The notes beneath the pieces were generated by a model. The model had not been told where the DNA came from. It did no database searches and worked only from the letters and a program-made list of their open reading frames with translations. Positions 10,697-47,900 of a stretch of 64,000 nt of DNA are shown here, one piece after another. The translations under genes and the position numbers were made by a program. This DNA is from Candidatus Woesearchaeota archaeon (GTDB lineage: Archaea > Nanobdellota > Nanobdellia > SCGC-AAA011-G17 > PNOQ01), in NCBI GenBank assembly GCA_043812195.1, contig JBDRML010000016.1, forward strand, positions 1 to 64,000, given 5' to 3'. How positions within the stretch are numbered: position 1 is the first letter of the stretch; every line of letters begins with the position of its first letter.

Positions 10697-10701
10697 AAAA
10701 G

Positions 10702-14512: not shown

Positions 14513-14708
14513 TAATGCAATTAGAAACAATAGAAGTTTTGTAACCTACACTTGGGTAGGTATATTTATGATGATTCTTCAAATTATTTCACTTTATTTG
14601 TTCATAGATTTATTAAAAATTCCAACAATAATAAGCAGCATAGTAATTGTTGGAGGAATATTTATTTTCAAATTTATAATATATAAATGGACAGGTTTCA
14701 CACGATGA
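14496..14708 (+). CDS. Small GtrA-like membrane protein
   Basis: 70 aa, two TMs, overlaps both neighbours in the operon. Confidence 0.5.
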   Translation: MRERINNAIRNNRSFVTYTWVGIFMMILQIISLYLFIDLLKIPTIISSIVIVGGIFIFKFIIYKWTGFTR

Positions 14709-15316: not shown

Positions 15317-15330
15317 TCAATCATAAGAAT

Positions 15331-15750: not shown

Positions 15751-15765
15751 GAAGCACCCAAAAAC

Positions 15766-16512: not shown

Positions 16513-16593
16513 ATTAAAAGAAAATCAAACTATTTTTATAAATCATTCTATTTAAACAAAAGTTATATAAAAACCTTCAAAATCCTTTAATAA

Positions 16594-18633: not shown

Positions 18634-18721
18634 AAGAAATCAATATTCAAAGAACATATATAAAAGTTGTCAAAAATAAGATGCTTTAATAATCTATATA
18701 AACAATACATTAACCTCAAAA

Positions 18722-21766: not shown

Positions 21767-22027
21767 ATGGCAACTGATCTTGTAAAAATGAGTCCAAAAG
21801 GACAATTAGTAGTTCCTGAAGAAATTAGGGAAAATGAAGGATTTATGCCTGGAGATAGATTTGTGGGGTTTCAAGTAAAAGAGGGGGTATTATTTAAAAG
21901 AGTTAAAATACCAGATGTAAAATTAGAATTTGAAAAACTAGCCAAGGACATAGAAAAGCATTTCAAGAAGCAAAGTATAACAAGAGAAGATATAGGTAAG
22001 GCTGTAAGATGGGCAAGAAAAAAGTAG
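21767..22027 (+). CDS. AbrB/MazE-type antitoxin (VapB-like)
   Basis: KMSPKGQLVVPEEIR..GD swapped-hairpin motif; overlaps the PIN gene. Confidence 0.85.
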   Translation: MATDLVKMSPKGQLVVPEEIRENEGFMPGDRFVGFQVKEGVLFKRVKIPDVKLEFEKLAKDIEKHFKKQSITREDIGKAVRWARKK

Positions 22028-22413
22028 TTTTAGACACCAATATACTTATTTCTGCTCTGGGGTGGAATGGAAAACCTAGGCAGATATTCCAAAAATGTAT
22101 AGAGGGAGATTTAGAATTAATTATTTCAAAGGAACAGCTTAAAGAATTAAATAAAGTAATGAATTATCCTAAATTCAAATTTAGTGATGAACAAAAAGAA
22201 ACTTTTATTTCAATTATATTAGAAATTGCTAAAGTTGTTGAAATTAAAAATAGCTTAAAAGTTATCAAGGATGATCCAGATGATAATATGATTTTAGAGA
22301 CTGCTTTAGCATCGAATGTAGATTACATTATTTCAGGAGACCCGCATTTATTAAATCTTGAAGAATTTAAAGGGATAAAAATTTTAAAAGCATCTGACTT
22401 TTTAGATTTGTAG
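22009..22413 (+). CDS. PIN-domain toxin (VapC-like)
   Basis: VVLDTNILISA, DPDDNMILE, IISGDPHLL. Confidence 0.9.
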   Translation: MGKKKVVLDTNILISALGWNGKPRQIFQKCIEGDLELIISKEQLKELNKVMNYPKFKFSDEQKETFISIILEIAKVVEIKNSLKVIKDDPDDNMILETALASNVDYIISGDPHLLNLEEFKGIKILKASDFLDL

Positions 22414-23116: not shown

Positions 23117-23622
23117 CACATGCTAAAAATAAAGTTGATTGGTGTATTAAAAAGGCTGAGAAAGAATTACAAAAATTAAATAGGCACAGAGGATTGATTA
23201 AAACCAGCTCAAATAAAGGAAAATCTAATAATTTTATAGAAAAGGCAGAACATAACTTAAATGCAGCAATAGAGTTTGAAAAAGGAAATTATTCTGATTG
23301 GTCACCAATTGCCTTTTTCTATTCTATGTATCATTGTTTATTAGCTATAAGTGCAAAATTTGGATATGAATCAAGAAACCAAGAATGTACTCTTGCACTA
23401 ATATATAACTTAATTGAAGATAAAAAGATAGATTTTAATAAAAGATTATTAGATGAGATATCAATGTTAGGCATTCCTAAAGATAAAGAAAGAAGCATTG
23501 TAGATATTAGAGAATTTTATCAGTATGGAACTTCACTTTCTATTAAAAAAGATGTATACAAAGATTTATTAAAACTAGCAAAAGAGGTTCTCTCAAGAAC
23601 CAAGGATTTATTGGAAGAATGA
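23113..23622 (+). CDS. HEPN-domain protein; natural start appears to be ATA 23113
   Basis: KAEHNL, DWS..AFFYSMYH, GYESRNQEC, REFYQYG; frame is open 27 codons upstream of the TTG at 23194. Confidence 0.8.
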   Translation: MTHAKNKVDWCIKKAEKELQKLNRHRGLIKTSSNKGKSNNFIEKAEHNLNAAIEFEKGNYSDWSPIAFFYSMYHCLLAISAKFGYESRNQECTLALIYNLIEDKKIDFNKRLLDEISMLGIPKDKERSIVDIREFYQYGTSLSIKKDVYKDLLKLAKEVLSRTKDLLEE

Positions 23623-32962: not shown

Positions 32963-34117
32963 ATGAATATTTGTTTGATAAACCCTTCTTTCTTTCCAGT
33001 TAGAGGGGGAGGAGAACAATTAACATATGACGTTGCAAAGGAATTATCAAATTCAAACAAAGTAGTAATCGCAACAGAACAGTTACCAAACACAAAACCT
33101 ATAGAAATAATAAACAACATAAAGGTATACAGAGCAAAAACTTCAAAAATTCCATTCTTAAGATTATTTTTAAATCAAATATATTTCTACAAAATGTTGC
33201 TAAAAATAATCGATAAAGAAAAAATAAATTTGCTTCATATGTTTCACCTTTTCAATTTGGGAGGTGCGGCAGTTTTAGCCAAAAGAAAGAAAAAATTAAA
33301 ACTAATAACTAGTCTAATTGGATGGGACACATATGATCCAATAAAACCTGTTCCAAAATACGCATTTCCATACATGGCATGGGTAATGAACAACTCAGAC
33401 ACTGTATTAACTAGCTCTAAACACTTATTAAAATCTGCAAGAAAACAAGGTGCAAGAAAACAAATTCCAATAATCTCACATGGAACAAATTTGCATAGAA
33501 TAAAGCAAAAAACAATAGATATAAAAAAAAAATATAACATAAAAAAAGATGAAAAAATTGTTTTCTCTCTTCAAAGACTTCACAAAAGAAAAGGTTTAGA
33601 ATATTTAATTCTTGCAGCCAAAAAAGTTCTGGCAAACAAACCAAATATAAAATTCATAATCGGAGGAAAGGGTCCTGAACTAAATAATTTAAAAGTACTT
33701 GCCAAAAGACTAAGACTAGAAAAAAATATTATATTCGCTGGATTCATACCAGACGAAGAATTAAACAATTACTATCAAACTGCAGATCTCTTCTCATTGC
33801 CAAGTCTTTACGAAGGGTTTGGAATAGTTTATGTGGATGCTCTAATCAATGGATTACCAATAGCAACAACAAAATGTGGCGGTTCAGAAGAAATGGTAAA
33901 CAAATCAAATGGAATTTTAGTAAAACCAAAAAGTAGCGAACAATTAGCCAATGCAATCTTAGAAGTATTAAACAAAACATGGAATAAAAAAGAAATCAAG
34001 AAAAATGCTGAAAAATATAAATGGGAAAATATAATAAAAAAATACGAAGAAATTTATGAAAAACTATCTTTTTCTGTATCTAATAACCCAAAACAACACA
34101 TTCTTAATCCAAGCTAA
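32963..34117 (+). CDS. GT4 glycosyltransferase
   Basis: FFPVRGGGE; RKG; LPSLYEGFGIVYVDA. Confidence 0.9.
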   Translation: MNICLINPSFFPVRGGGEQLTYDVAKELSNSNKVVIATEQLPNTKPIEIINNIKVYRAKTSKIPFLRLFLNQIYFYKMLLKIIDKEKINLLHMFHLFNLGGAAVLAKRKKKLKLITSLIGWDTYDPIKPVPKYAFPYMAWVMNNSDTVLTSSKHLLKSARKQGARKQIPIISHGTNLHRIKQKTIDIKKKYNIKKDEKIVFSLQRLHKRKGLEYLILAAKKVLANKPNIKFIIGGKGPELNNLKVLAKRLRLEKNIIFAGFIPDEELNNYYQTADLFSLPSLYEGFGIVYVDALINGLPIATTKCGGSEEMVNKSNGILVKPKSSEQLANAILEVLNKTWNKKEIKKNAEKYKWENIIKKYEEIYEKLSFSVSNNPKQHILNPS

Positions 34118-34711
34118 ATTAAACAAAACTGCAAACAACAACAACAAAACCACTAATTGATTAAAAATAATCAAAACAGATATAACTAAATTCTGTATTG
34201 CAACATCTACTTCAATTGGTTTCTGATCTTTTGGTTTTGAATCTTCAACATTAAATTTAACTTTAGTAAATAATGCACTATGTCTCCAAAACAAGGTGCT
34301 TATAATAGCCAAAATAGATAAAACCATAACAAAAAGAGAGGGTTCATTAATATAAATCACAACAGAAATTGCTATAAGAATTATCAATTCCCTTATTCTA
34401 TCTAATATTCCATCAAGCCATGCTCCAAATTGAGAAGCTTTTCCTTTAAGTCTAGCAAGTTCTCCATCAACCAAATCAAAAACCCAAGAAAACCAATAAA
34501 CTATTCCTGCAAATACATAATTCCCATTTAATAAGAGAAAAGCAGAAAAGACACCAATTAAAAAACTGAGAACCGTCACAAAATTTGGAGAAATAAATCT
34601 AAGCTTATAAAAAAGCACAGTAAAGGGATATGAAAACAACCTACTAAACTCGAACAAATAAGATTCCTTAAAAGATTTTCTTCTCCTTCTCCATAAAGAT
34701 TGCATTCTCAA
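34064..34711 (-). CDS. CDP-alcohol phosphatidyltransferase family protein
   Basis: SPNFVT; complete DxxDGxxAR..GxxxDxxxD motif (DLVDGELAR..GAWLDGILD). Confidence 0.9.
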   Translation of the reverse strand: MRMQSLWRRRRKSFKESYLFEFSRLFSYPFTVLFYKLRFISPNFVTVLSFLIGVFSAFLLLNGNYVFAGIVYWFSWVFDLVDGELARLKGKASQFGAWLDGILDRIRELIILIAISVVIYINEPSLFVMVLSILAIISTLFWRHSALFTKVKFNVEDSKPKDQKPIEVDVAIQNLVISVLIIFNQLVVLLLLFAVLFNLAWIKNVLFWVIRYRKR

Positions 34712-34801
34712 AAACTACAAAACCTCGTATATAAAGTTTATTAAAATTAATTTAGAATCCACAAAGCTTAAGAATAGTATAACATTCCAAATCATGTTTA
34801 A

Positions 34802-35563
34802 ATGAATTTAAAAGAGAGATACAATAAAATAAAAGAGCACTCATTCAGCAGAGCCAGAAAATACAAAGGATTTGACAAAATCTACGATACATTTATGAGA
34901 GTTATAACATTTATACCAGTATTCATTTTATCCTTTTTTCCTATAACAGGTAACGCTGTATCAATATTAGCCATTTTAGGTAATTTTCTAGCATTCTATT
35001 TATTTATAACTCAACAATTTATTTTAGGTATAATAATCATTTTTGCTACTGAAGTATTAGATTACATGGATGGAACTGTAGCAAGGATAAGAAATGAAAA
35101 AAATCCAATAATGGGTAGCTTTTTAGGAAGGTTATATCATGTAGTTAGTTTTGGGATAATTTTTATCGGTATTTGTATAGGAATTGGTATTTGGGAGATG
35201 GGTATAGTATTAGGGATTAGTTATTATATCAGAGTATATATGATAGAATTAAGAAATAGTCTATTAAACATAGTCCACAAAGATATTCAAAAACCAGAAG
35301 AAACAAAAAAACAAAACAAATTATATAAATTTATCAAAAATCTTATAGTATTTCCAATAAGTGATGGAAAGGTTATTATTCTAATAATTTTAATTAGCAT
35401 AATATTGGGCATTTTAAAAGAAGTTATGATATTTTATGCAATTCATTCAGTAATTTTAGCTTTAGCAGTATTTGTAATAACATATAGACAATTAATAGCA
35501 AAAAAGAAGGAACCTACAGAAAATAGTAACATAAACATTAAAAAAGAAGAAGAGGTAAATTAA
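34802..35563 (+). CDS. CDP-alcohol phosphatidyltransferase family protein (variant motif)
   Basis: TGNAVS; DYMDGTVAR..GSFLGRLYH. Confidence 0.8.
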   Translation: MNLKERYNKIKEHSFSRARKYKGFDKIYDTFMRVITFIPVFILSFFPITGNAVSILAILGNFLAFYLFITQQFILGIIIIFATEVLDYMDGTVARIRNEKNPIMGSFLGRLYHVVSFGIIFIGICIGIGIWEMGIVLGISYYIRVYMIELRNSLLNIVHKDIQKPEETKKQNKLYKFIKNLIVFPISDGKVIILIILISIILGILKEVMIFYAIHSVILALAVFVITYRQLIAKKKEPTENSNINIKKEEEVN

Positions 35564-35598
35564 AAAATCGTTTCAAAAAACAAAGGAGGAAATAAAAA

Positions 35599-36033
35599 AT
35601 GAAAATAGTTTATTCATATTATGTATTAGATTTGGTACATAAAGGACACATTCTTCAAATGAGAAATTCTAAAAACTTTGCAGGTGAAGATGGAAAACTA
35701 GTTGTTGGGATTTTAACAGATGAAGCCGCAATGGAAAAAAAACCAAAACCAATTATGCCATTTGACGAGAGGGTAATTCTCGCTAAAGCCATAAAATATG
35801 CAGATGTAGTTATTCCGCAAGAAACTTATTCTCCAATAGATAATATAAGAAGAATAAAACCAGATATTTTAATGGAATCAGTAAGCCACAATGAAAAAGA
35901 TATAAAAGAAGCGATTGAAGTAATGAAAGAATGGGGTGGTAAAGTCATAATAACTCCAAATTACCCACAACAATCTTCAACAAATTTAAAAAAAGAATTA
36001 AGAAGAACTAACGCTAAAAGGGAGGAAATATAA
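35599..36033 (+). CDS. HxGH cytidylyltransferase (TagD-like / PEP-mutase-associated type)
   Basis: DLVHKGH, VVGILTD, PFDER, VIPQET, EWGG, SST; its stop overlaps the phnD start (TAATG). Confidence 0.85.
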   Translation: MKIVYSYYVLDLVHKGHILQMRNSKNFAGEDGKLVVGILTDEAAMEKKPKPIMPFDERVILAKAIKYADVVIPQETYSPIDNIRRIKPDILMESVSHNEKDIKEAIEVMKEWGGKVIITPNYPQQSSTNLKKELRRTNAKREEI

Positions 36034-36968
36034 TGAAAAAAACAAATTTGGCAATCGGAGCGTTAGTAATACTCTTAGGAATAGTATTAATTTTTCCAAT
36101 TATATCTGGAGAAGAAAAATTACAGGAAGAGATAACAGGAGACATTGTTAAAAATACAAATGAAATAAAAGTCTTAAAGATGGGTTTAATCCCTGCAGAT
36201 GACGCAGCAGAAATGCTAAGAAATTATGAACCTATTAAAGAATACCTATCTGAAAAATTAGGAATTCCAGTAGAAATTCAAGTAACTTCAGATTATACTG
36301 CTGCAATTGAAGCAATGAGAGCAAAACATATTGATATGGCATGGTTTGGACCATTCTCATACATAATAGCAGCCAATGTTGCAGACGCAGAAGCAATAGT
36401 TAATGGAGTTAAAGAAGATGGAAAATCTACCTACAAATCAATAATAGTAGTTAATGCAAATAGTGGAATAAAAACATTAGAAGATTTAAAAGGCAAAAGT
36501 TTCGCTTTTGTAGATCCAGCATCAACGTCAGGAAATTTAATACCTAGAAAGATGTTAATTGAAAATGGAATAGATCCAGACAACGATTTTAGCACTCAAT
36601 ATTATGCTGGCACACACAATGCAGTACAATATGCAATAGCAAACGGAAAAGTAGATGCAGGAGCAGATAGTGATAATTCATATTACAGAATGTTAGAAGC
36701 TGGAGAAATAGATTCTGAAGTTAATATAATCATTTACGAATCTGAACCAATTCCGGGATCTCCAATAGCAGTTAGGGGAGGCTTACCTAAAGATTTCAAA
36801 AAAGCCATCCAAGATGCTTTAATAGCAATGGAAGAACAGACAATCCATAAAGTAGATGGTTGGGGTGGAATTATAAGGTATCAAGCAGTCACAGATAGTG
36901 ATTACGACATTATTAGAGATACTGCAAAAATATTAGGAATGGATGTAACAAACCCAGACGCTACTTAA
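36033..36968 (+). CDS. phnD: Phosphonate/phosphate-ester ABC substrate-binding protein
   Basis: DYTAAIEAM, WFGPFSY, DPASTSGNLIP, GTHNA, IPGSP. Confidence 0.9.
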   Translation: MKKTNLAIGALVILLGIVLIFPIISGEEKLQEEITGDIVKNTNEIKVLKMGLIPADDAAEMLRNYEPIKEYLSEKLGIPVEIQVTSDYTAAIEAMRAKHIDMAWFGPFSYIIAANVADAEAIVNGVKEDGKSTYKSIIVVNANSGIKTLEDLKGKSFAFVDPASTSGNLIPRKMLIENGIDPDNDFSTQYYAGTHNAVQYAIANGKVDAGADSDNSYYRMLEAGEIDSEVNIIIYESEPIPGSPIAVRGGLPKDFKKAIQDALIAMEEQTIHKVDGWGGIIRYQAVTDSDYDIIRDTAKILGMDVTNPDAT

Positions 36969-37021
36969 ATAAATTATTTTTTATTTTTTTATAATTCTAA
37001 AATAAGAAAAATAAAATAAAA

Positions 37022-37768
37022 ATGATAAAAATAGAAAACCTAACCCATACTTACAAAAATAGAAATGAAGAAGCAATTAAATGTATTAATTTGCACATCA
37101 AAAAAGGAGAAAGTATAGTTATAATAGGATCAAGTGGATCTGGAAAATCAACATTACTAAGATGTATCAATAAATTAATAGAACCTAATTCTGGAAAAAT
37201 ATTAATAGAAGATGAAGATATTATAAATTGTTCAGCTAAAAAAGCAGAAAAAATACGTGGAAAAATTGCAATGATTTTCCAGAATTTCAACCTTATAGAA
37301 AGAGAGAGTGTTCTTAAAAACGTTTTAAATGGAAGATTAAAATATAATAGCACAATCAAAACTTTATTCGGAAAGTTTTCTAAAGAAGATTATAATATTG
37401 TAAAAGAAAACATCAAAATAGTTGGATTGGAAGGATACGAAGAAGAAAGAATCAATAATTTAAGTGGCGGACAAAAACAAAGAGTCGCTATAGCAAGAGC
37501 ATTGTCACAAAAACCAGATATCATTCTAGCTGATGAACCAGTATCAAACTTAGATCCAATGCTAATGACAGAAATAATGGATTTACTTAAAAGTATTTGT
37601 GATAAAAAAAATATAACACTTATAACAAGTTTGCATTTTCTTGAATTTGCAAAAAGATATGGTACAAGAATAATAGGAATGCGAAACGGGCAGATTGTTT
37701 TTAATGGGACCCCAGAAGAACTTACAGAAAGAGACATAGTAGAAATATACCAAAAAACTCAAAACTAA
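37022..37768 (+). CDS. phnC: Phosphonate ABC transporter ATPase
   Basis: GSSGSGKS, IFQNFNL, NVLNGRL, LSGGQKQRV, ADEPVSNLDP, SLH. Confidence 0.92.
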   Translation: MIKIENLTHTYKNRNEEAIKCINLHIKKGESIVIIGSSGSGKSTLLRCINKLIEPNSGKILIEDEDIINCSAKKAEKIRGKIAMIFQNFNLIERESVLKNVLNGRLKYNSTIKTLFGKFSKEDYNIVKENIKIVGLEGYEEERINNLSGGQKQRVAIARALSQKPDIILADEPVSNLDPMLMTEIMDLLKSICDKKNITLITSLHFLEFAKRYGTRIIGMRNGQIVFNGTPEELTERDIVEIYQKTQN

Positions 37769-37778
37769 CTTGCCAAAA

Positions 37779-38570
37779 ATGACTAAACTAAAACTCCCAA
37801 AAAATAAGTATAAAGGAATTATTATAGGTATATTAATAGTCATAATCTATTACTGGGCCATTACTGGAACTGAAACAAGCCCTATTAATTTTGTCAAAGG
37901 TCTTCCAAATATGGCAGATTTCATCAGTAGAATGTTCCCACCAGACATAACTAACTTAGAAAGATTTCTATTAAAAGCTGTAGAAACTCTACAAATGGCT
38001 ATAGTAGGATCAACATTAGGAGCATTAATAGCACTACCATTATCATTTTTGGCTGCAAGAAATATAATGCACAATAAATTAATATATCATACAACAAGAA
38101 CTATATTTGATGCTTTAAGAGGAATTAACGAAATAGTATGGGGTCTAATTTTTGTTTCAATGGTAGGACTAGGACCATTTCCAGGAGTATTAGCATTAAC
38201 AGCGCACGTTACAGGTGCGTTAGGAAGATATTTTTCAGAAGCAATAGAAACAGTAGATCCAGAATCAATAAGAGCTATTGTCTCAACAGGAGCAAGCAAA
38301 ATTCAAGTAATAGCTAGAGGAATTTTCCCACAAGTTAAACCACTATTTGCCAATTATTCCTTGTACTATTTAGAAAATAATTTCAGAGCTGCAACAGTCT
38401 TAGGATTGGTAGGAGCAGGAGGAATAGGTATGGAGCTCATCACAAGTATGAGACTATTCAAAAACCAAGAAGTTCTAACTATTCTAATAATAATGGTATT
38501 AATGGTTATAATGATAGATCGATTAAGTGCATTCGTTAGAAAAAAGATAATTAAAATTGAAAATGTTTAA
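37779..38570 (+). CDS. phnE: Phosphonate ABC transporter permease
   Basis: ETLQMA, GLGPFPGVLAL, FSEAIE, ENNFRAATVLGLVGAGGIG. Confidence 0.92.
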   Translation: MTKLKLPKNKYKGIIIGILIVIIYYWAITGTETSPINFVKGLPNMADFISRMFPPDITNLERFLLKAVETLQMAIVGSTLGALIALPLSFLAARNIMHNKLIYHTTRTIFDALRGINEIVWGLIFVSMVGLGPFPGVLALTAHVTGALGRYFSEAIETVDPESIRAIVSTGASKIQVIARGIFPQVKPLFANYSLYYLENNFRAATVLGLVGAGGIGMELITSMRLFKNQEVLTILIIMVLMVIMIDRLSAFVRKKIIKIENV

Positions 38571-38588
38571 CAAAAATTAAATAAGACT

Positions 38589-38756
38589 TTATTGCATAAT
38601 TGCTTCTTCACTCAATTTACCTTCTTTTAAAGCTTGTACCCTTTCACAAACCTCAAAAATTCTTGACAATCCAATATTCATTGCTTTAACCAAAGTAGGA
38701 TTAAATTTAGAAAGAACAGAATCTTCATAATACCTTGATTTAATATCAGCTATTCT
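38589..38756 (-). pseudogene. Start-less gene fragment, possibly the C-terminus of an HD-domain protein
   Basis: 55-codon frame RIADIKSRYYEDSVL..RIFEVCERVQ with an upstream stop; family assignment from memory only. Confidence 0.3.
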
Positions 38757-38815
38757 TTATCTAAAAAACATTCTCGCACCATTTACATTACATGCATAGC
38801 CCACTTATAATCTCA

Positions 38816-39478
38816 TTATGCATCAATCTTTGATACAGCCTTATAACTATTCTTAAATGAATAAATAACCATTAAACTTGTTATCAACAAATAACCTAAA
38901 TTTAATACCATCATTAAACCAAGTATTTTACCAATAATTATCATAGGCAAATAACCTTCAAAACTTAAAGCAATTCTTATTACTTCGTTCTGTTTTCCAC
39001 CGACTTTCTTACTTTTTTTGTTTGTAGTTTTTAGTAGATTATCTTTGTATCTAAAAGAAATCTGACTAAGCAAATAAAATATTGCAGATGTTACACCAAC
39101 CACTAAATAACCACTTCCAATTCCAACACCTATTAAAAGCGTTATTAAAGATACAATATGAAACATGTGGTCTAAATATGCATATGTCTTATTGTTTAAG
39201 TTATTTGTTGAGTGTGCTATTGCACCATCTACGCAATCTAAAATATGGCCCAAAATTAAGAACAACATTCCAATCCAAAACTCATTAGATAAAAAGAAAA
39301 TTATTGCAGGTATTCTACTTAAGATTGCTAACCAAGTGATTGTATCTGGCTTTATCTTTAACCATTTAAATGAATAATAGAATGGAATTGAAAGTATTAT
39401 TAAACAACAATATACTATCTTCCATATTAAAGGATTATTCTTAAACTTCCTTTTTATGGTTACTTCGTATAGTTCCAA
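38816..39478 (-). CDS. CDP-alcohol phosphatidyltransferase family protein (variant motif)
   Basis: KPDTIT; DCVDGAIAH..YAYLDHMFH. Confidence 0.8.
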   Translation of the reverse strand: MELYEVTIKRKFKNNPLIWKIVYCCLIILSIPFYYSFKWLKIKPDTITWLAILSRIPAIIFFLSNEFWIGMLFLILGHILDCVDGAIAHSTNNLNNKTYAYLDHMFHIVSLITLLIGVGIGSGYLVVGVTSAIFYLLSQISFRYKDNLLKTTNKKSKKVGGKQNEVIRIALSFEGYLPMIIIGKILGLMMVLNLGYLLITSLMVIYSFKNSYKAVSKIDA

Positions 39479-41384
39479 GTATCACATCTCCTGATTTTTT
39501 TGAAGAATCAAATAAATTTTCCCTTATGGATAAATTCCTCTTCTTTATGCTTTCTAATATTCTTAAAAAATGTTCAATACTAACATTTCTAATATCAACT
39601 TCTAATAACTCGTGTTTCCCCAAACATTTTTCTGAAAATCCTTCCGTATCTTTATATTTTATTATTATTATTGGTCTATCTACGTATATTGCTTCTAACA
39701 CTATTGATGAAAAAAATGTTATTACTAAATCATATTTTTTTAGAAAATCATATTTATCACCCACATTTTTATCTTCATAAACTTTATTAGAAATTTTATT
39801 ATAGATTTCTTTATTTTCTTCAGATGGATGCATCTTTATATCTAACTCAAAATCTCCCTTCAATTTTTCACTTAATTCTTTTATATAACTCTCATACTCT
39901 TTGATTGTTGATGTTCCTTCTTCCACAAAAGCATTTGTGCATAACAAAACTTTCTTCTTTGGTTTCTTTACAAAACTATATCCCACCAAATGTAAGTTTT
40001 CTTTCTTCGCCCCATTCTTTAATAACATATCTTTTAATAAATGATTATAACACAATACATGGCAATTATCTGGGTATGTATATTCTACATCGGGAATAAG
40101 GAAACCATGTGTCAATCTAAAACAAGGTATATTCATAGACTTACCCGCAATAATCATACACTTTTCAACAAGGTTTCCAAATCCATCTAACAAAACACAT
40201 TTACAATCGTACTTTTTTATTATATCCAAACAAATTTTATAATAAATGTTTATTAATCGTATTACTTCTTTTGAATATATAAAATCTTCTGGAGGAATCT
40301 TTGTTTTTTTATATTTAATATTATTCGATTGAAAAATAGAGTCAAAATAATTGTATATCATATCCTCCCTATACCTAATTCTTTTACTTGATAACTTATC
40401 GAAATAGATTACTTTTTGTGCATGTCCCAAACTTTTTATGTAATTATAAATATCGCCAACTCTTTCTAGTTCATCACCTTTCTTTCTTATTAATGGCAGT
40501 AAGTATAGTATATCATACTTATTATTATCTTTTATTTTTTTAGACGCAATCAGCTTTGTTATTTGAGAGATATACATTGCTTTTCTATATATATTTCTTT
40601 TTTCACCGTATACCCATTTTGGCATTTCACCAACTAATATTTTCTGTTTAAAAAACAATCCAATGTTATAATCGCCGATTTTATAATTCTCATCTATACT
40701 AAAATTGCCAGATTTTTTATTGATAGATGAACCTTGCATAAGATCTTGCCCCTCCATTATTTTTACTCTTTTTTCTTTTTTCTTTTCAATAATTAAATTC
40801 ATCCATTTTTTTTGGTATTTTATGTTATAATCTTCATAAAATTCAATTACATCAAACCCATTTTCATTAAACATCTCAATAAACTCATCTTTAACAAATC
40901 GCCTTCTAAATCTTTTAGTTACATTTTTATAATCTTCTTTAATAAAATACCCTTCTTCTGATTTTTCATTTATAGTGGTACAAACAAAAATACATCCATT
41001 CGGCATTAATAATGATTTTAATTTGTTTAATATTATTTTTGTTTCATCTTTTGGAAATAAGTGTATAAAAGCATCTAAAATTATTCCATCATATTTTCTA
41101 TCAAATTCCTTTTTTAAGAAATCTATAACTTCTAATTTTGCTTCTGGAACATTCTTTTTAGCAAATTTAATCATCTCTTTTGAACAATCAATACCATAGG
41201 TTTTAAATCCAAAATTATTTAAAATATGTAAATCAAGACCAACGCCGCAACCAATATCTAAAACTTCTGGTTTCTTGAATCTTTTTGCTAATATTTTTTT
41301 AAAGGGTAATAATACTTTTGTTTGATACAAAATATTATTTTTATTTCTTTCATTATATTCTTTAGCAACAGAATCATAGTTCAT
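39441..41384 (-). CDS. SAM methyltransferase fused to a GT-B-like polysaccharide transferase domain
   Basis: N-terminal LDIGCGVG/FIHLFP; C-terminal LTHG, KMHPSE, DLVITFFSSIVLEA as in CDP-glycerol/sialyl-type transferases. Confidence 0.7.
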   Translation of the reverse strand: MNYDSVAKEYNERNKNNILYQTKVLLPFKKILAKRFKKPEVLDIGCGVGLDLHILNNFGFKTYGIDCSKEMIKFAKKNVPEAKLEVIDFLKKEFDRKYDGIILDAFIHLFPKDETKIILNKLKSLLMPNGCIFVCTTINEKSEEGYFIKEDYKNVTKRFRRRFVKDEFIEMFNENGFDVIEFYEDYNIKYQKKWMNLIIEKKKEKRVKIMEGQDLMQGSSINKKSGNFSIDENYKIGDYNIGLFFKQKILVGEMPKWVYGEKRNIYRKAMYISQITKLIASKKIKDNNKYDILYLLPLIRKKGDELERVGDIYNYIKSLGHAQKVIYFDKLSSKRIRYREDMIYNYFDSIFQSNNIKYKKTKIPPEDFIYSKEVIRLINIYYKICLDIIKKYDCKCVLLDGFGNLVEKCMIIAGKSMNIPCFRLTHGFLIPDVEYTYPDNCHVLCYNHLLKDMLLKNGAKKENLHLVGYSFVKKPKKKVLLCTNAFVEEGTSTIKEYESYIKELSEKLKGDFELDIKMHPSEENKEIYNKISNKVYEDKNVGDKYDFLKKYDLVITFFSSIVLEAIYVDRPIIIIKYKDTEGFSEKCLGKHELLEVDIRNVSIEHFLRILESIKKRNLSIRENLFDSSKKSGDVILGTIRSNHKKEV

Positions 41385-41718: not shown

Positions 41719-43212
41719 ATGACTGATTATTCTAAAACTTTGATAAAAGGAACAAGTGTTATTTTCATTGCAACAATAAGCACAAGTCTAATTGGTTATT
41801 TTCTAAAATTATTATTAGCAAAAAACTTAACTATAACGGAATTTGGATTAGTTTATTCAATAATAGCATTATTCGGAGTTTTTCTAATATTGCCTGGAAT
41901 AGGATCAGGCAAAGCATTAGTTAGATTTATAACAGAATACAAGACCAAAAATAAATTAAAAGAAATTAAAACAACCATACTAACAAGTTTCTTAATCAAC
42001 ATGTGTTTATCTCTAACAATAGGCCTTATATTAATTATATTTTCAGAACCAATAGCTCTAAATTATTTACATGATATAACCAAATCATCTTACATAAGAT
42101 TATATGCTATAGCATTTATTCTTACCCCTACAATAAGTATATTTAAATCTATTTTTGCAGGATTCAAAAAAAGTAAATATTATTCAATAATAGACTTATC
42201 AAAAATGTTAACAATCCTAATTTTCGCTTATATCTTCCTAAAATTAAACTTGGGTGTAACAGGGGTATTTTTAGCCTACATTTTAGTATATATTCTACCA
42301 ATAATATTCTATTTCCCATTACTAATAAAAAAAGTATTTCCAACTTTCTTAAAGGTAAAAGCAGGAATCAAATCACAAAAAGCAAAAAGATTAATAAAAT
42401 TTGGGATACCCCTCACAATAGCAAGTACAGCAGGTATGATATTTGGATACATGGACACAGTGATAATCACTTTCTTTAGATCTCTAGAAGAAGTAGCACT
42501 ATACAATGTAGGATTGCCAACTATAAGAATTGTATGGAACTTTGAAAGGGCTCTAACTGTAATACTTTTTCCAATAGCAGTAGAATTATGGCTCCAAAAA
42601 GATAAAACCAGATTCAGAAACGGAATAAAAAATCTCTACAAATACATTTTAATTATAATAATACCATTTACTATGGTCTTATTCATATTTCCTGAATTAA
42701 TCCTCAAAGTATTATTTGGCCAAGCATTTGTGGGGGCTGCTAGTGTAGTGAGAATTCTTGCAATCACATCGCTAATTATAGTTTTAGCAAGAATAAATAT
42801 AGCCATAATAACCAGCATAGGAAAACCAAGCATTATAACTAAAGTAATGGTAATAGGCGCGCTGATAAATATTATAATAAACCTAATTTTAATCCCGATA
42901 ATAGGTATAAATGGTGCTGCGATATCCACAGCAGCCGCCTTTTCATTTATATTGATTTACACACATAATAATCTAAAAAAATTAGCACAAATAAATTTCC
43001 CAGTAGGAAAAATAATCAAAATATTATTAATCAGCACAATTATAACTATTACAGCTTACATTTTAAAAGAAATTATTCAAATAAATATCTATTTAGAATC
43101 TATAATTATAATATTAATAGGAATGATAATCTACACAACTCTGATTTTTGTATTCAAAGTCTTAACTCCAAAAGAAGTTAAAAATCTGCTTAACAAGCTT
43201 AAAAATAAATAA
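41719..43212 (+). CDS. Wzx/MOP-family oligosaccharide flippase
   Basis: About 14 TMs; EFGL, DTVII..EVALYN, GINGAAIST. Confidence 0.9.
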   Translation: MTDYSKTLIKGTSVIFIATISTSLIGYFLKLLLAKNLTITEFGLVYSIIALFGVFLILPGIGSGKALVRFITEYKTKNKLKEIKTTILTSFLINMCLSLTIGLILIIFSEPIALNYLHDITKSSYIRLYAIAFILTPTISIFKSIFAGFKKSKYYSIIDLSKMLTILIFAYIFLKLNLGVTGVFLAYILVYILPIIFYFPLLIKKVFPTFLKVKAGIKSQKAKRLIKFGIPLTIASTAGMIFGYMDTVIITFFRSLEEVALYNVGLPTIRIVWNFERALTVILFPIAVELWLQKDKTRFRNGIKNLYKYILIIIIPFTMVLFIFPELILKVLFGQAFVGAASVVRILAITSLIIVLARINIAIITSIGKPSIITKVMVIGALINIIINLILIPIIGINGAAISTAAAFSFILIYTHNNLKKLAQINFPVGKIIKILLISTIITITAYILKEIIQINIYLESIIIILIGMIIYTTLIFVFKVLTPKEVKNLLNKLKNK

Positions 43213-43238
43213 TAAATCTGACAAAACTAAAAAGATAA

Positions 43239-44012
43239 TTAATATTCAACTTTGAAAGTATTTTCTAAAGCTGTGGGCCCATGAGAAAACACACGAGTCC
43301 CTTCAGCCATTGTTTCGAGTATTATTCTATCCATAAATTCTCTTTGTGAAGGTAAGGTTCTACCAGTTTCACCTAATTTAGGTTTATAAAAATAATTACC
43401 ACCATAATAACTAGAATCACTAGAAACCTCATTACTAAATTCAACACCATACAAATGAATTGAAGATGCACCCATGACATGAGCGACTTGTAGAGCCATA
43501 CATGCACTTGTACCCCCAACATTAATCGCCTTTTGATGTCTTCTAGAAACTGGAACAGGATTCTTAGATCCAGCAATATAATGCATTAATAAATGTGGCT
43601 CAGAAGGGCTAGGTAATTGTAAAAAAAGATTATTGATATGTTCATCTCTGCTAGAAACCCATCTTAATCCTAATTCAGTAGTTTTAACTAAACTAGGTTT
43701 CTCATCCATATATTTTTCATATTCATTAATAAATTTATTCCTAATCTTTTCATCAGGATAAAATTTGGGAGAGTAAATAGCTGAATGTGGTTTAATTATA
43801 CATTGCACATCCTCATCCAAATCCAAAAACCAACTTCTAGTATGTGCAGCTTGGTCTCCAGAAAGAAAAATATCTCTTCCATGAAGTAAATAACCCGCAC
43901 CATTAACACCAATAACAATGTCTTCCCCTCTATTAAAAATCATAACAGAAGGAGCAGAACCTAAAACAGCAATTTCAGTACCATAATAAATATTTCTTAC
44001 TTTATCAAGCAT
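43239..44012 (-). CDS. DUF115/MAF (MptE-like) family protein, possible nonulosonate transferase
   Basis: AVLGSAPS, IGVN, ALQVAHVMGASSIHLYGVEF. Confidence 0.6.
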   Translation of the reverse strand: MLDKVRNIYYGTEIAVLGSAPSVMIFNRGEDIVIGVNGAGYLLHGRDIFLSGDQAAHTRSWFLDLDEDVQCIIKPHSAIYSPKFYPDEKIRNKFINEYEKYMDEKPSLVKTTELGLRWVSSRDEHINNLFLQLPSPSEPHLLMHYIAGSKNPVPVSRRHQKAINVGGTSACMALQVAHVMGASSIHLYGVEFSNEVSSDSSYYGGNYFYKPKLGETGRTLPSQREFMDRIILETMAEGTRVFSHGPTALENTFKVEY

Positions 44013-45039
44013 TTTTTAACGTTTTAATCAGTTTTTTCTCTAATCCTAAAGCAATTTCTGTTCTATTATTGAAAAAATCATATCTTCTACTAAAATAATC
44101 TCTCTCAGCATCTGAAGACGTAGGTAAATATCCTTCACCCCACGTAACTATTAAACTATTTAACCCAACATCAGCAAGCATTAAGGGTAAGCTCTCAATC
44201 TGATCTCTAATAGAAGGATCAAATTTCCTATATTCAGAAAAACATTCTTTTAATTTATCCCAATCAACCCTATCATCAAGAGCAATATCTTTTGTTTCTT
44301 TATCAAAACAATATAAATCAGAGGTATGTATCGCATCAGTCCCTCTAAAATCCATTCTAACTAAATCATAATCAACAACAGCAACCAATTTGCCATTGTT
44401 TATCAACGCGCACCCTAAATTAAAGTCGCCATGAATCAATTGCTTAGGTTTACCTAATTTAGGTAATCTTTCTTCAACTGTACTTATCATCTCTCTAACT
44501 CTACTAACCTGAGAAAGAACATATTCATCCGTATCATTACATGCACTTCTGGGCAAATGTGGTTCTAATTCTTCAAGCAATCTTCTATGGGATTTAAAAA
44601 ATCTTGGCAAAGCTTCATATTCTTCTAAATTCTCAAATTGGCCCAATGCTAAATTAAATCTAGCTAAACCATGAAATGCTAAATTTATTTCTGATTGAAC
44701 AGATTCTCTTGGATGTCTCCCTTCAACAAATGTCATCAAGGAATAAAGGTTATTTTCAAAAGTCGTTAAGTTTTCTCCATTTATACTCTTCAAAATCTTT
44801 GGTGTAGGCACTCCACAAGCATAAACAAAATCATTTAACCTTAGTTGAAATTCTGCTATTTGGGGTGTAAAATCATAAGAATATTTCTTAACAACATACT
44901 TAGATGCATTAGAATCAGTCAAAAAAACGACTTGGTTTTTGTCTCCTTTTTCAGGAAATTCTTGATTTGGGGTAAAATCTAAATCATATGCACGTGATAA
45001 AAAATCAATCTCTTCCGGTGTAAATTTTTCCCTTAACAT
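44005..45039 (-). CDS. APH/homoserine-kinase type II-like phosphotransferase
   Basis: YVVK, GVPTP, FVEG, IHGDFN, VVDYD. Confidence 0.8.
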   Translation of the reverse strand: MLREKFTPEEIDFLSRAYDLDFTPNQEFPEKGDKNQVVFLTDSNASKYVVKKYSYDFTPQIAEFQLRLNDFVYACGVPTPKILKSINGENLTTFENNLYSLMTFVEGRHPRESVQSEINLAFHGLARFNLALGQFENLEEYEALPRFFKSHRRLLEELEPHLPRSACNDTDEYVLSQVSRVREMISTVEERLPKLGKPKQLIHGDFNLGCALINNGKLVAVVDYDLVRMDFRGTDAIHTSDLYCFDKETKDIALDDRVDWDKLKECFSEYRKFDPSIRDQIESLPLMLADVGLNSLIVTWGEGYLPTSSDAERDYFSRRYDFFNNRTEIALGLEKKLIKTLKNA

Positions 45040-45137
45040 AAAAAAAGAATTTAACGACTACTTATAAAGTTTACTAATATTAAAAAAATTAGAAATTATT
45101 CCACAAGCTTTTTAAACAAATATCATTTCTCAAACTC

Positions 45138-45887
45138 ATGCAAAACAATAAAGTATTAGCTATAATCCCTGCAAGAGGTGGTTCTAAAGGAATTCCAAGA
45201 AAAAACATAAAACCATTTCTAGGCAAACCATTAATAACATACACAATTAAATTAGCATTATCTTGTCCAGAAATAGACAAAGTAATTGTTTCTACAGATG
45301 ACGAAGAAATAGCTCAAATTTCTAAAGAAGCTGGAGCAGAAATACCTTTCATAAGACCTGAAGAATTGGCAAGAGATGATACACCAGCCATTCCTGTATT
45401 CAGACATGTTATAAAATTCTTAGAAGAAAAAAACGAACATTATGAAAATATATTAATTCTAGAACCAACAGCACCACTAAGAACAAAAGAACACATTTTA
45501 CAAACAATAAAAACACTAAAAGAAGAAGATGTTGAAACAGTAGTAAGCGTCAGAAAATTTGATATAGATTTCACAGATGTACTTGAAAAAAATGAAAACA
45601 ATTATCTAACACCTTTTTTAGGAACTAAAACAACAATCAGAAGACAAGATACAAAAGATGTCTACATAATGGATGCAGCAATCTACGGAGTCAAAAGAGA
45701 TGCATTAATGGATGAATCATTAATCATGCTTAACCCATACAAAGGAAGAAATCCACAATTAAAAACAAAAATGGTATTATCAAATCCAAATCTATCTTGT
45801 GAGATTGATAATGAAGAAGATTGGGAATATGCTGAATTTTTATACAACAAATACAAAAAAGAAATAGAAAGAGAAAAAAATGATTAA
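45138..45887 (+). CDS. neuA: CMP-nonulosonic acid synthetase
   Basis: IPARGGSKGIPRKNI, VSTDDEEI, PFIRPEELARD, PTAPLR, RRQD. Confidence 0.92.
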   Translation: MQNNKVLAIIPARGGSKGIPRKNIKPFLGKPLITYTIKLALSCPEIDKVIVSTDDEEIAQISKEAGAEIPFIRPEELARDDTPAIPVFRHVIKFLEEKNEHYENILILEPTAPLRTKEHILQTIKTLKEEDVETVVSVRKFDIDFTDVLEKNENNYLTPFLGTKTTIRRQDTKDVYIMDAAIYGVKRDALMDESLIMLNPYKGRNPQLKTKMVLSNPNLSCEIDNEEDWEYAEFLYNKYKKEIEREKND

Positions 45888-46593
45888 CATAATAGGTCCA
45901 TCTACTGGATGGTTATACGCAATTGGAACAAATACATTAGAAGAACAAGAAAAAATAATAAAAGAAGCAAATGCAAACGCATTTGAAATTTCATTCGAGC
46001 CAGAAGTACCAAGAATTAGATCTTTATTAAATGGAAGCTTTAATGGTTTCAAATATAGATCAATGCATCTACCTGAAATAGATCCAGCAAAACCTCTAGA
46101 AGCACAATTAGGAGCAATGAAATCAGTAATAAGCAAACATAAAATAGAAACAGGAGTAATTCATCCTTGTGATGTCTCTTCAAGAGATTACTGGAGAAGA
46201 ATGGTTACTTACACAATTCCTGTAGCAGCAGAAAATATGGACAAAAATAAACCAAGCGGATTCAAATTAGAAGAACTAAGAGAATTAAACGAAATTTATG
46301 GAGTAAATTTTGTATTAGATGTTCAACACGCATATGAACATGATCCAACTATGAATTATGCTAAAGAATTATTAAATATGATGGAACCTAATTTAAAACA
46401 CCTACATGTTAGTGGAGAAACAGAAGACAACTGTCATTCATTAGTATATAAAGCAAGAAACGCAGATACAATAACAGATTTCATAGGAACAGTATTATCA
46501 AGAAAGGAAGTTCCGATAATACTTGAAGGACAGTATTCAAATGCAGAAGAATTAAAAACAGAAATAGATTTCCTAAATGGTGAATTAAAATGA
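45880..46593 (+). CDS. Xylose-isomerase-like TIM-barrel protein
   Basis: MHLP, VIHP, ENMD, LDVQHA, HLHVS, ILE metal-ligand pattern. Confidence 0.7.
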   Translation: MINIIGPSTGWLYAIGTNTLEEQEKIIKEANANAFEISFEPEVPRIRSLLNGSFNGFKYRSMHLPEIDPAKPLEAQLGAMKSVISKHKIETGVIHPCDVSSRDYWRRMVTYTIPVAAENMDKNKPSGFKLEELRELNEIYGVNFVLDVQHAYEHDPTMNYAKELLNMMEPNLKHLHVSGETEDNCHSLVYKARNADTITDFIGTVLSRKEVPIILEGQYSNAEELKTEIDFLNGELK

Positions 46594-47900
46594 TAGAACC
46601 TAAAAAATTAACATTAACAAAATCTTATGATTATTGGAAAAGAGCCGTAGAAGTAATTCCAAATGGTTGCATGACCATAAGCAATGGACCAATAAGTTAC
46701 ATAACAAATGTTTCACCAATATACATTCAAAAAGGAAAGGGATGTAATGTATGGGATGTAGATGGAAATAAATTTTTAGATTTAGCTCCAGGAGGTTATT
46801 TAAAAATATTAGGCCATAACTACAAACCATTAACAAAAGCCATAATAAAACAAGTAAAAGATGATTCAATTTTCCAAATGCCACATCCGCTAGAAGTAGA
46901 AACAGCAGAAACAATAGTAAAGACAATTCCTAGTGCAGAAATGGTTAAATTTGCAAAAAACGGTGCAGATGTTTTAACTATGGGTGTAAGAGCAGCTAGA
47001 GCATACACAAACAGAGACATGATAGCTTCAGAAGGTTACCATGGAATACACGATTGGTATATCGGAACCACAGAAAGAAACAAAGGAGTTCCAGAAGCAG
47101 TCAAAAGATTAACAGCCACATTTAATTACAATGATATAGATTCACTTAAAAAAATATTCGAAAAATATCCAGACCAGATAGCATGCGTAACTTTAGAACC
47201 AGTTCAATTATCAGAGCCAAAAAATAACTTTTTACATCAAGTTAAAAAAATCACACATGAAAATGGCGCAGTATTAATGTTTGACGAGATAATAACTGGA
47301 TTCAGATTTTCACTCGCTGGAGCACAAGGTTATTTTGATATAAAACCAGATTTGTCAGCATTTGGCAAAGCAATGTCAAACGGATTCTCCTGTTCAGCTT
47401 TAGTTGGAAAATCAGATATAATGATGGAATTTGAAAAAGGTGCATTTTTCTCAACAACATACGGTGGAGAAACAACTGGACTAATAGCAGCAAAGAAAAC
47501 AATAGAAATAATGAAAGAAAAAAATGTTCACGACCATCTTTGGAAAATGGGATCCATACTAAAAAATGGAATAAATAAAATCATAAAACAAAATAATCTA
47601 CAAGACCATTATTATATTCATGGATATCCTGTTTGGACAGTAATAAAAGCAAAAGGTGATGATAAAATAGGAACAGAAAACGAAAAAACTGGCTTATTGC
47701 AACAAGAAGCAATGCAAAGAGGAATGTTAGCAGGATTATTCCATGGATTATGCTACGCACATAAAGAAAAAGATATTCAAAAAGGATTAGAGATTTACGA
47801 AGATTCTTTCAAAAAAGTTAAAAAGTACATTAATGAAGGGGATATCAAAAAACATCTAAAGGGAGAATACGGAGGAAAAGTATTCAGAAAAGTAGGTTAA
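46590..47900 (+). CDS. Class III aminotransferase (GSA-aminomutase-like, glycan-associated)
   Basis: WDVDGN, GYHGIHDW, FDEIITGFR, FGKAMSNG, STTYGGE. Confidence 0.88.
   Translation: MIEPKKLTLTKSYDYWKRAVEVIPNGCMTISNGPISYITNVSPIYIQKGKGCNVWDVDGNKFLDLAPGGYLKILGHNYKPLTKAIIKQVKDDSIFQMPHPLEVETAETIVKTIPSAEMVKFAKNGADVLTMGVRAARAYTNRDMIASEGYHGIHDWYIGTTERNKGVPEAVKRLTATFNYNDIDSLKKIFEKYPDQIACVTLEPVQLSEPKNNFLHQVKKITHENGAVLMFDEIITGFRFSLAGAQGYFDIKPDLSAFGKAMSNGFSCSALVGKSDIMMEFEKGAFFSTTYGGETTGLIAAKKTIEIMKEKNVHDHLWKMGSILKNGINKIIKQNNLQDHYYIHGYPVWTVIKAKGDDKIGTENEKTGLLQQEAMQRGMLAGLFHGLCYAHKEKDIQKGLEIYEDSFKKVKKYINEGDIKKHLKGEYGGKVFRKVG

Follow-up and report, generated by a model that had tools for sequence, protein, structure and literature searches.

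Gene content of the locus

We analysed 64,000 nucleotides from a groundwater archaeon, Candidatus Woesearchaeota (assembly GCA_043812195.1, contig JBDRML010000016.1, positions 1 to 64,000 of the forward strand; hereafter the window), which encode a phosphonate-type importer, PhnDCE, together with a cytidylyltransferase (CT) and CDP-alcohol phosphotransferases (cdp1 to cdp3). The genes cdp2, CT, phnD, phnC and phnE form an operon with intergenic gaps of 35, -1, 53 and 1 nt. The stop codon of the CT gene (TAA, 36031-36033) and the start codon of phnD (ATG, 36033-36035) overlap within a TAATG string, and a GGGAGG string lies 8-13 nt upstream, inside the CT gene. An earlier interpretation of this DNA made without database searches (the sequence-only reading) had described such a layout. 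Pfam and NCBIfam searches confirmed all seven genes, their co-oriented run and their coordinates, the TAATG overlap proved real (36031-36035), and the strings HxGH (as HKGH), VIPQET, EWGG and SST were found in the CT translation. Its placement of the genes in an aglB glycan locus was equally accurate: the window is a surface-glycan island, in which AglB, many glycosyltransferases and methyltransferases, Wzx, a nonulosonic-acid set and a CMP-sugar synthase surround the module. The claim of three CDP-alcohol transferases stood only in part, as all three products match PF01066 (cut-off, 22 bits) but the full motif is present in cdp1 alone, and by their motifs cdp2 and cdp3 are a variant subfamily.

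Table 1. Genes of the module and of the surrounding glycan island
Feature	Coordinates	Strand	Evidence and remarks
AglB oligosaccharyltransferase	11034-13601	+	STT3 143.4 bits
PIN-domain gene	22009-22413		inside the glycan island; likely toxin-antitoxin or defence type
HEPN-domain gene	23194-23622		inside the glycan island; likely toxin-antitoxin or defence type
cdp1, canonical CDP-alcohol phosphotransferase	34064-34711	-	PF01066 65.2 bits; transcribed divergently from the operon
cdp2, variant CDP-alcohol phosphotransferase-like membrane protein	34802-35563	+	PF01066 22.5 bits (borderline); operon gene 1
CT, stand-alone HxGH cytidylyltransferase, ~144 aa	35599-36033	+	PF01467 (CTP_transf_like) 46.2 bits
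PhnD-family substrate-binding protein, N-terminal membrane anchor	36033-36968	+	Phosphonate-bd 254 bits; TIGR03431
PhnC ATPase	37022-37768	+	ABC_tran; TIGR02315
PhnE permease	37770-38570	+	BPD_transp_1; TIGR01097
cdp3, variant CDP-alcohol phosphotransferase-like protein	38816-39478	-	PF01066 35.2 bits; convergent with the operon
Methyltransferase + weak TagF-like/GT-B domain fusion	39441-41384	-	Methyltransf_23 51.5 bits; Glyphos_transf 29 bits, residues 493-584
Wzx-type flippase	41719-43212	+	Polysacc_synt 95 bits

The genome to which the window belongs (938 kb, 90.4% complete) was searched as a whole assembly for all the absences reported here. No PEP (phosphoenolpyruvate) mutase (PepM), PhnJ or PhnX was found in it, nor any member of the 2-Hacid_dh_C family, which includes PtxD; the lack of C-P lyase, PhnX, PtxD and PEP mutase that had been noticed in the window thus extends to the entire genome. 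PhnW was not searched as a family, and tblastn with the class-V aminotransferase of a related archaeon (G021, introduced below) gave only 32% identity over 117 aa, on another contig. Also without a match were a PstS-type binding protein, PiT, CarS (the CDP-archaeol synthase, PF01864), a glycerol-1-phosphate (G1P) dehydrogenase of the Fe-ADH_2 type, the GpsA C-domain and the FGGY glycerol kinase. With no known route for making phosphonates or glycerol phosphate at 90% completeness, the substrate of CT has to come from outside.

Coupling of the cytidylyltransferase to importers

The motifs of CT are HKGH at residues 14-17 and QQSST at residues 124-128. Its predicted model (pLDDT 90.8) had only members of the HxGH cytidylyltransferase superfamily among its top fold matches. 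When the sequence was compared with solved structures, the cytidylyltransferase (CyTase) domain of Fom1 (5x3d) came first with 63.5 bits, ahead of HldC (44.6), human ECT (43.4) and TagD (37.6). The same structure, in its form bound to the CMP derivative of 2-hydroxyethylphosphonate (HEP), was the best match for the fold of the predicted model (E 4.6e-13; root-mean-square deviation 1.3 A over 126 columns). A search at E <= 0.001 returned 1240 homologues, the top 120 of which were 136-169 aa long, shared 63-71% identity with CT and came from many bacterial phyla and Thermoplasmata. A search of proteins longer than 252 aa gave 34 homologues: 28 of these were CTP_transf_like+PEP_mutase fusions (33-40% identity), and the other six consisted of a CT of the stand-alone type joined to NUDIX, NTP_transf_3 or other extensions. 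The Fom1 match and these fusions bear out the suggestion of the sequence-only reading that CT resembles the domain fused to PEP mutase, a fusion reported for PF01467 in 23.6% of Ppm enzymes (Rice et al. 2019, PMC6697681; the papers cited here by PMC number are cited from excerpts). CT itself is not fused to PEP mutase, and the genome holds no PepM for it to adjoin. In a quick tree, SH-aLRT support was 99 both for a clade of stand-alone CTs, whose 26 rows include tandem paralogues, and for a separate clade of PepM-fused domains.

CT scored far below the equivalog cut-offs of both TagD (TIGR01518, 52.6 versus 165.4 bits) and the heptose-phosphate adenylyltransferase RfaE-II (66 versus 181.5). 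Orthology with TagD was rejected on this score and on the position of three annotated TagD proteins outside the stand-alone clade. A second small HxGH enzyme of the genome adjoins KsgA. In a Parabacteroides distasonis record (L110, 3983-6916), an HxGH CT, a short-chain dehydrogenase/reductase (SDR), a CDP-alcohol phosphatidyltransferase and a lysophospholipid acyltransferase stand in a row; the CT-SDR-transferase trio matches the Smithella-type loci described below, with neither an importer nor PepM in view.

The neighbourhoods of stand-alone CTs were compared at 74 genome loci with orthologues, by clustering their open reading frames (ORFs) and scanning cluster representatives with profiles. 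An importer was present at 47 of the 74 loci, in 30 of them at the +1 position, and eight loci had nothing downstream. Transporters of the major facilitator superfamily (MFS) belonging to the OPA family (GlpT/AepP-like) were found at 45 loci and PhnDCE at three, one locus holding both. AepP, which has been shown experimentally to import 2-aminoethylphosphonate (2AEP), is a GlpT-like OPA transporter of this same MFS family (PMC8316502). Porin_O_P-like proteins occurred at 17 loci. TagF-like proteins were near CT at 21, LicD at 13 and CDP-alcohol transferases at 25 of the 74 loci, with one or another of these three at 41. NTP_transf_3 proteins of about 300 aa accompanied CT at 18 loci and a 248-aa methyltransferase at 11.

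Of two Neomarinimicrobiota loci, one (L033) reads NTP3-CT-PhnD-PhnC-PhnE-porin-NUDIX and the other (L041) reads NTP3-CT-MFS-porin-NUDIX, which by gene order is an in-place exchange of the importer type. In a Planctomycetota locus (L047), as in the window, the stop codon of CT and the start codon of phnD overlap by 1 nt. No PepM was found in the three bacterial genomes in which CT stands with PhnDCE, and two of them have PstS. Cloacimonadota loci (L007, L021, L022, L024, L040, L077 and others) contain an ABC exporter, three TagF-like genes, CT, a phosphate-porin-like gene and an OPA-family MFS gene, and on the opposite strand genes for a 303-aa CDP-alcohol transferase and a 400-aa LicD protein. 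A 2025 survey of Cloacimonadota, as excerpted, lists PhnCDE without degradation genes as well as a 'fom1' annotation and draws no link between them (PMC12590816).

Scanning metagenomes with PhnD gave 26 loci whose PhnD shares 70-100% identity; 25 are low in G+C, and two are near-identical twins of the window. A nucleotidyltransferase flanked PhnDCE at 22 of these, the other four being contigs of 1.6-2.8 kb. At 14 loci it was an enzyme of the CT type directly upstream of PhnD, sharing 53-75% identity with stand-alone CT references versus 31-42% with PepM-fused domains; a LicC/PntC-like NTP_transf_3 protein took the CT position instead at five loci and followed PhnE at nine. That two unrelated nucleotidyltransferase folds alternate beside PhnDCE is hard to explain unless the cargo of the transporter is nucleotidylated. 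Taken across genomes and metagenomes, the coupling of CT to an importer is well supported by comparison and is not a matter of chance. The linkage of the cytidylyltransferase to phnDCE is kept in G021 and in metagenome and bacterial loci, so that the proviso of the sequence-only reading, that no other genome might conserve it, falls away.

At several loci (L119, L123, L124, L128, L135, L118 and L121) the gene of the CT type is preceded in tandem by one for another HxGH protein, 177-200 aa long; at about 33% identity to both stand-alone CTs and PepM-fused domains, this protein is a third type. An S-adenosylmethionine methyltransferase gene lies between phnD and phnC in one locus (L133:1336-2070 region) and directly after phnD in another (L122), recalling the 248-aa methyltransferase of the bacterial CT loci.

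We searched 41 genomes from the family and order of this archaeon, its own included. G021, from another genus of the family, has the module in unchanged gene order: cdp1 (65% identity), an unrelated ORF of 231 aa, CT (64%), PhnD (74%), PhnC (73%) and PhnE (82%). The cdp1 orthologue is thus at the same position, and cdp2 is not kept, its place being taken by the 231-aa ORF, which is HD-like (HDIG-domain, NCBIfam, 20.5 bits, a weak match). On contig C7 of G021 lie genes for Wzx, a Ppd-like protein, a CT-PepM fusion (EDKVGPKRNS, which fits EDKxxxxxNS), a sulfatase-family protein and a class-V aminotransferase, the flippase gene adjoining those for Ppd and CT-PepM. Further along follow a CDP-alcohol transferase with 32% identity to cdp3, a CMP-sugar synthase and a class-III aminotransferase. 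Since the flippase, the synthase and the class-III aminotransferase are 68%, 69% and 77% identical to the window's products at 41719, 45138 and 46590, this part of C7 is the orthologous glycan island. Where G021 has its aminoethylphosphonate cassette, the window has two unrelated genes (43239-45039), and tblastn of the G021 PepM, Ppd, aminotransferase and sulfatase genes against the genome of the window found no cassette remnants. The sequence-only reading had uptake replacing de novo C-P synthesis. This agrees with a genome that lacks PepM beside a sister island that has it, but G021 has both, and 'replaced' is too strong as a general statement.

The cassette swap between the orthologous islands spans 4974-19167 of the G021 locus (L088, on C7) and 41719-47900 of the window. 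Additional genes of the G021 cassette code for PAPS-reductase-like, HIT, EF-Tu-like GTPase, phosphodiesterase, HD and radical S-adenosylmethionine (rSAM)-SPASM proteins, and the site in the window holds only a 257-aa MptE-like ORF and an APH-family kinase gene (44005-45039). The product of 39441-41384 is probably, by its domains, a further tailoring enzyme; over its C-terminal half it shares 34% identity with a protein of the G021 island that has Epimerase_2/polysialyltransferase matches. CT-PepM fusions were found in four of the 41 genomes, and in one of these (G004:C3:51540-54242) an Fe-ADH_2 gene adjoins the fusion, which suggests a hydroxyethylphosphonate rather than an aminoethylphosphonate pathway.

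Stand-alone CTs also have a link to phosphonates. At 5 of the 74 loci CT adjoins Ppd (TIGR03297, 483 versus a cut-off of 312) and PepM. Four of these are of the Smithella type, with the CT-PepM fusion seen whole in L043, and the fifth, from Thermoplasmata, has a PepM-NTP_transf_3 fusion, Ppd and an iron alcohol dehydrogenase. A conserved cluster recurs in Smithella/Syntrophaceae (L006, L010, L012, L038, L042, L043, L071, L079), consisting of Mla lipid-transport genes, ORFs of 311 and 141 aa with no known function, CT, a small CDP-alcohol transferase, an SDR, a methyltransferase, two KAS-III-like genes, Ppd and the CT-PepM fusion; from its gene content it looks like a locus for phosphonolipid synthesis and delivery to the outer membrane. 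We took a census of PepM in the 49 genomes that correspond to 50 of the 74 loci, the completeness of these metagenome-assembled genomes not being established. PepM was found in 14 of the 49: in 6 of the 39 with an importer at the CT locus versus 8 of the 10 without one (Fisher p = 2e-4).

Binding pocket, head-group donor and proposed pathway

PhnD, PhnC and PhnE all exceed their NCBIfam equivalog cut-offs (273.2 versus 261.1, 317.7 versus 266.1 and 298.5 versus 216.7, respectively). The residues of PhnD were mapped through HMMER alignments and by aligning E. coli PhnD (sequence of the K-12 record), with residue assignments from PMC5700983 and PMC12718374. By comparison with E. coli PhnD and PtxB, the head-group residues that bind the P-O oxygens are kept (Y88, S164-T165-S166, H195). 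The cap positions are A55/N215/S243, versus D/-/Y in PtxB and T/E/D in E. coli PhnD. In Te_PtxB, specificity for phosphite is conferred by the capping Tyr (Y208) and its Asp partner (D22) (PMC5700983); here Tyr208 is replaced by S243 and Asp22 by A55. A third type, GpxB, binds G1P and glycerol-3-phosphate (G3P), with Thr247 and Arg223 touching the glycerol hydroxyls (PMC12718374). Ser243 corresponds to Thr247 of GpxB when placed by its spacing from the conserved His rather than by alignment.

The signature of PhnD is P-A-D, D-N, G-S-P, in which A55, D56, D214 and S243 are invariant in all 22 long metagenome relatives and in G021; N215 becomes Ser in two of the 22. At the cap, the three bacterial PhnD proteins linked to CT carry A, V and A. 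The substitution of the capping Tyr by an invariant Ser implies a larger pocket. Judged by these residues, the pocket is uncapped and appears to match none of the three characterised types (PtxB, E. coli PhnD, GpxB); the cap residues exclude a phosphite-specific or E. coli-type site and do not name the ligand. A phosphonate, as the sequence-only reading proposed among possible ligands, is a candidate, but the known determinants of both 2AEP and phosphite binding are absent from PhnD.

The genome encodes four CDP-alcohol transferases, three of them in this module. In cdp1 the motif DxxDGxxAR...G...D...D is complete with all four Asp residues. Together with cdp2 it shares 28-32% identity with the CDP-alcohol transferases of bacterial CT loci. 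The best NCBIfam scores of cdp1 to cdp3 are far below the equivalog cut-offs, and ordinary archaeal lipid head-group synthases were rejected as their identity on these scores and the absence of CarS. With no CarS, and so no CDP-archaeol, the local transferases cannot, given 90% completeness, act as ordinary archaetidyl-X synthases; their donor should be a soluble CDP- or CMP-head-group compound. A CDP-alcohol transferase-like subfamily with His at the fourth Asp (and Gly at the third in some members) recurs by phosphonate or PhnDCE genes on several DPANN-like contigs. By motif inspection it comprises cdp2, cdp3, the transferase of the G021 phosphonate cassette (L088:16415-17101) and a transferase adjacent to PhnDCE in L115 (7240-7971).

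We propose that cdp2-CT-phnDCE with cdp1 and cdp3 is a salvage-and-attach module working by import, activation and attachment, a reading to which we give slightly better than even chances. What the sequences show are the families of the genes, the layout of the operon and the fact that importer, nucleotidyltransferase and CDP-X transferase recur together across lineages; the chemical coupling, the acceptor and the ligand are inferred. PhnDCE would import a small phosphate or phosphonate mono-anion that the cell cannot make, and CT would condense it with CTP to give a CMP-phosphonate or a CDP-alcohol. CDP-alcohol phosphotransferases, with cdp1 as the confident candidate and possibly cdp2 and cdp3, would then move the head group onto a membrane-embedded alcohol, either a scavenged archaeol-type lipid or a polyprenol-linked glycan, and the product would be displayed through the Wzx/AglB island. 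A phosphonate, e.g., 2-aminoethyl- or 2-hydroxyethyl-phosphonate, is the ligand we would name first, with a probability a little short of even; phosphoethanolamine or phosphocholine is an unlikely one, and glycerol phosphate, or no coupling at all with transport of inorganic phosphate only, is slightly less likely still. More broadly, a widespread and so far unrecognised salvage of phosphonates in prokaryotes without PEP mutase can be put forward with considerable doubt. Aminoethyl- or hydroxyethyl-phosphonate, of environmental or host-derived origin, would enter through PhnDCE or AepP-like antiporters in DPANN archaea, Cloacimonadota, Neomarinimicrobiota and Planctomycetota, be turned directly into a CMP-phosphonate by the dedicated family of stand-alone CTs, and be passed on to lipids or surface glycans with the C-P bond intact.

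A number of observations weigh against the proposed module or against its phosphonate version. PhnD exceeded the cut-off in 2 of the 41 genomes (G021 and the genome of the window), and the module was found in these two only. In cdp2 the third Asp is replaced by Gly and the fourth by His, and in cdp3 His replaces both the Arg of the AR pair and the fourth Asp; CDP-alcohol transferases accompany PhnDCE in just 7 of the 26 metagenome loci (TagF-like proteins in 2). The tree, which set CT apart from TagD, did not resolve its sisterhood with the PepM-fused domains: stand-alone CTs, PepM-fused domains, RfaE2 and other CTs formed an unresolved polytomy, with TagD across a weak branch (55). A plasmid search with CT returned an aepX fusion (67 bits), RfaE (60) and TagD (57), all at about 30% identity. 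In PhnD, the E. coli-type 2AEP cap (Thr14/Glu177/Asp205) is lost, Glu177 being replaced by N215 and Asp205 by S243, and the closest solved relatives are phosphite binders (PtxB 5o2j, 180 bits, versus 88 bits for E. coli PhnD). A fused CT or a PntC-like enzyme is already encoded at the PepM loci, and the stand-alone CT found there might serve another head group. In the census, PepM was not found in 33 of the 39 importer-linked genomes, seven of the eight importer-less genomes with PepM share one Syntrophia-type architecture (few events, not 49 independent ones), and the substrate of stand-alone CTs may simply not be a phosphonate. Finally, the genome of the window has a single PhnD and no other recognisable phosphate importer, and PhnDCE may also, or solely, carry inorganic phosphate (Pi).

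We considered the possibility that PhnDCE is a Pi importer, placed next to CT by phosphorus economy or cassette shuffling, with CT acting on an unrelated cytoplasmic substrate. The lack of PstS and PiT in the genome would fit such a role, but the order largely does without recognisable phosphate importers (of the 41 genomes, none yielded PstS, one PiT and two PhnD); on this distribution PhnDCE is a patchy accessory trait and not the phosphate system of the clade. PstS is, moreover, present in two of the three bacterial genomes with CT-linked PhnDCE, and sister loci hold in the same slot an organophosphate:Pi antiporter, which brings about no net import of Pi. PhnD-family proteins can bind Pi, the residues for three P-O oxygens are kept, and the picocyanobacterial PhnD1, from genomes without degradation genes, has been argued to be a phosphate transporter (PMC10284923); against this stands the larger pocket implied by the Tyr-to-Ser change in 22 of 22 long relatives. 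Similarly, the glycan island does show cassette swapping, but shuffling sits poorly with nucleotidyltransferases of two unrelated folds flanking PhnDCE at 22 of 26 loci. We consider a Pi importer improbable, but a serious rival.

Another possibility was a teichoic-acid-like system, in which G1P or G3P from the lipids of neighbours would be imported in the manner of GpxB, converted to CDP-glycerol by CT, and added to or polymerised on a lipid or glycan by the transferases and a TagF-like enzyme. The PhnT family does include proven binders of G1P and G3P, whose cap positions hold Thr and Arg (PMC12718374); the PhnD of the window has Ser, placed by spacing, and Asn at the presumed counterpart of the Arg. 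The commonest neighbour of stand-alone CTs scores best on PgtP, UhpC and GlpT models, and the genome yielded no pathway of its own to glycerol phosphate, but free-living bacteria that make G3P would need no dedicated importer and porin beside CT. TagF-like proteins near CT (21 of 74 loci) and the weak TagF-like domain at 39441-41384 would also suit this scheme, whereas CT falls well below the TagD cut-off and in a clade apart from TagD, and the association with PepM and Ppd would go unexplained. We consider this system improbable, too.

The weakest alternative, uptake of phosphonate or phosphite for phosphorus nutrition by an unrecognised catabolic route, is highly improbable: PhnDCE classically feeds catabolism, the nearest solved relatives of PhnD are PtxB proteins, and HD-domain proteins (presumably folded like PhnZ, which cleaves C-P bonds) are found next to the module in G021 and at 6 of the 26 metagenome loci, but the genome has no PhnJ, PhnX or 2-Hacid_dh_C/PtxD-type gene, the Tyr cap and Asp partner of phosphite binders are Ser and Ala, and there is no HD gene in the window's own module. 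Phosphite uptake as the principal function was rejected, as both the Tyr cap with its Asp partner and the PtxD-type family are absent.

Relation to known systems

A role in phosphorus nutrition is assigned to PhnDCE almost by default, and the presence of PhnDCE in genomes without C-P lyase, phosphonatase or PtxD is a recognised puzzle, stated for picocyanobacteria (PMC10284923) and touched on for Cloacimonadota (PMC12590816). The coupling of importer, CT and a transferase using CDP-linked donors offers a testable answer, namely that the imported compound is a building block of the envelope and not food. If this is true, it would explain 'orphan' phnDCE operons in genomes without phosphonate catabolism, add an uptake branch to phosphonate tailoring pathways, so far surveyed only around PEP mutase, and define a substrate for a large conserved CT family (>1200 members). 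It would also give one concrete way in which DPANN archaea without synthesis of lipid head groups and glycerol phosphate build their surface chemistry from scavenged parts. We found no description of a prokaryotic import-cytidylylate-attach module for phosphates or phosphonates in the limited literature collection searched.

In the Lic pathway of Streptococcus pneumoniae and Haemophilus influenzae, LicB is the importer, LicA the kinase, LicC the cytidylyltransferase and LicD the transferase. The module would resemble it in importing a head group that is not of the cell's own making, activating it with CTP and placing it on surface polymers, and LicD and LicC-like (NTP_transf_3) genes accompany stand-alone CTs in 13 and 18 of 74 loci. 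Both LicC and LicD are mentioned in PMC6697681. Unlike in the Lic pathway, the imported compound would already carry phosphorus, so that no kinase step would be needed; the importer is PhnDCE or an OPA antiporter and not LicB, the cytidylyltransferase has the HxGH and not the LicC fold, and CDP-alcohol phosphotransferases replace LicD. The window has no LicD, and the APH-family kinase gene lies outside the conserved module.

The Kennedy pathway consists of ECT or CCT followed by a CDP-alcohol choline/ethanolamine phosphotransferase. The likeness lies in the order of the two enzyme families: an HxGH cytidylyltransferase works first, and a CDP-alcohol phosphotransferase then modifies a lipid alcohol. 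Human ECT matches CT as given above. In an archaeon in which the lack of CarS makes a CDP-lipid donor unavailable, a CDP-head-group donor of the Kennedy kind is the logical alternative. The difference is in an archaeal CT of minimal size, small transferases of 215-253 aa and a substrate that would come from a dedicated transporter.

With the Pnt pathway and Fom1 the module would share the cytidylyl activation of a phosphonate and its transfer to surface molecules, and the nearest solved relative of CT is the HEP-activating Fom1 domain. It differs from them in that the genome has no PEP mutase and CT is stand-alone, coupled to an importer and set in a separate clade (30-40% identity with PepM-fused domains). 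Published surveys centre on Ppm neighbourhoods; the word 'transporter' does not occur in PMC6697681 and occurs once, in another sense, in PMC8942020. As to the PhnT family (PtxB, E. coli PhnD, GpxB), the PhnD of the window has the same fold family and keeps the head-group residues, but with its A55/N215/S243 cap it appears to match none of the three characterised types. In sum, the module works like the Lic and Kennedy pathways and overlaps with phosphonate tailoring, and by its defining parts it is a member of none of them.

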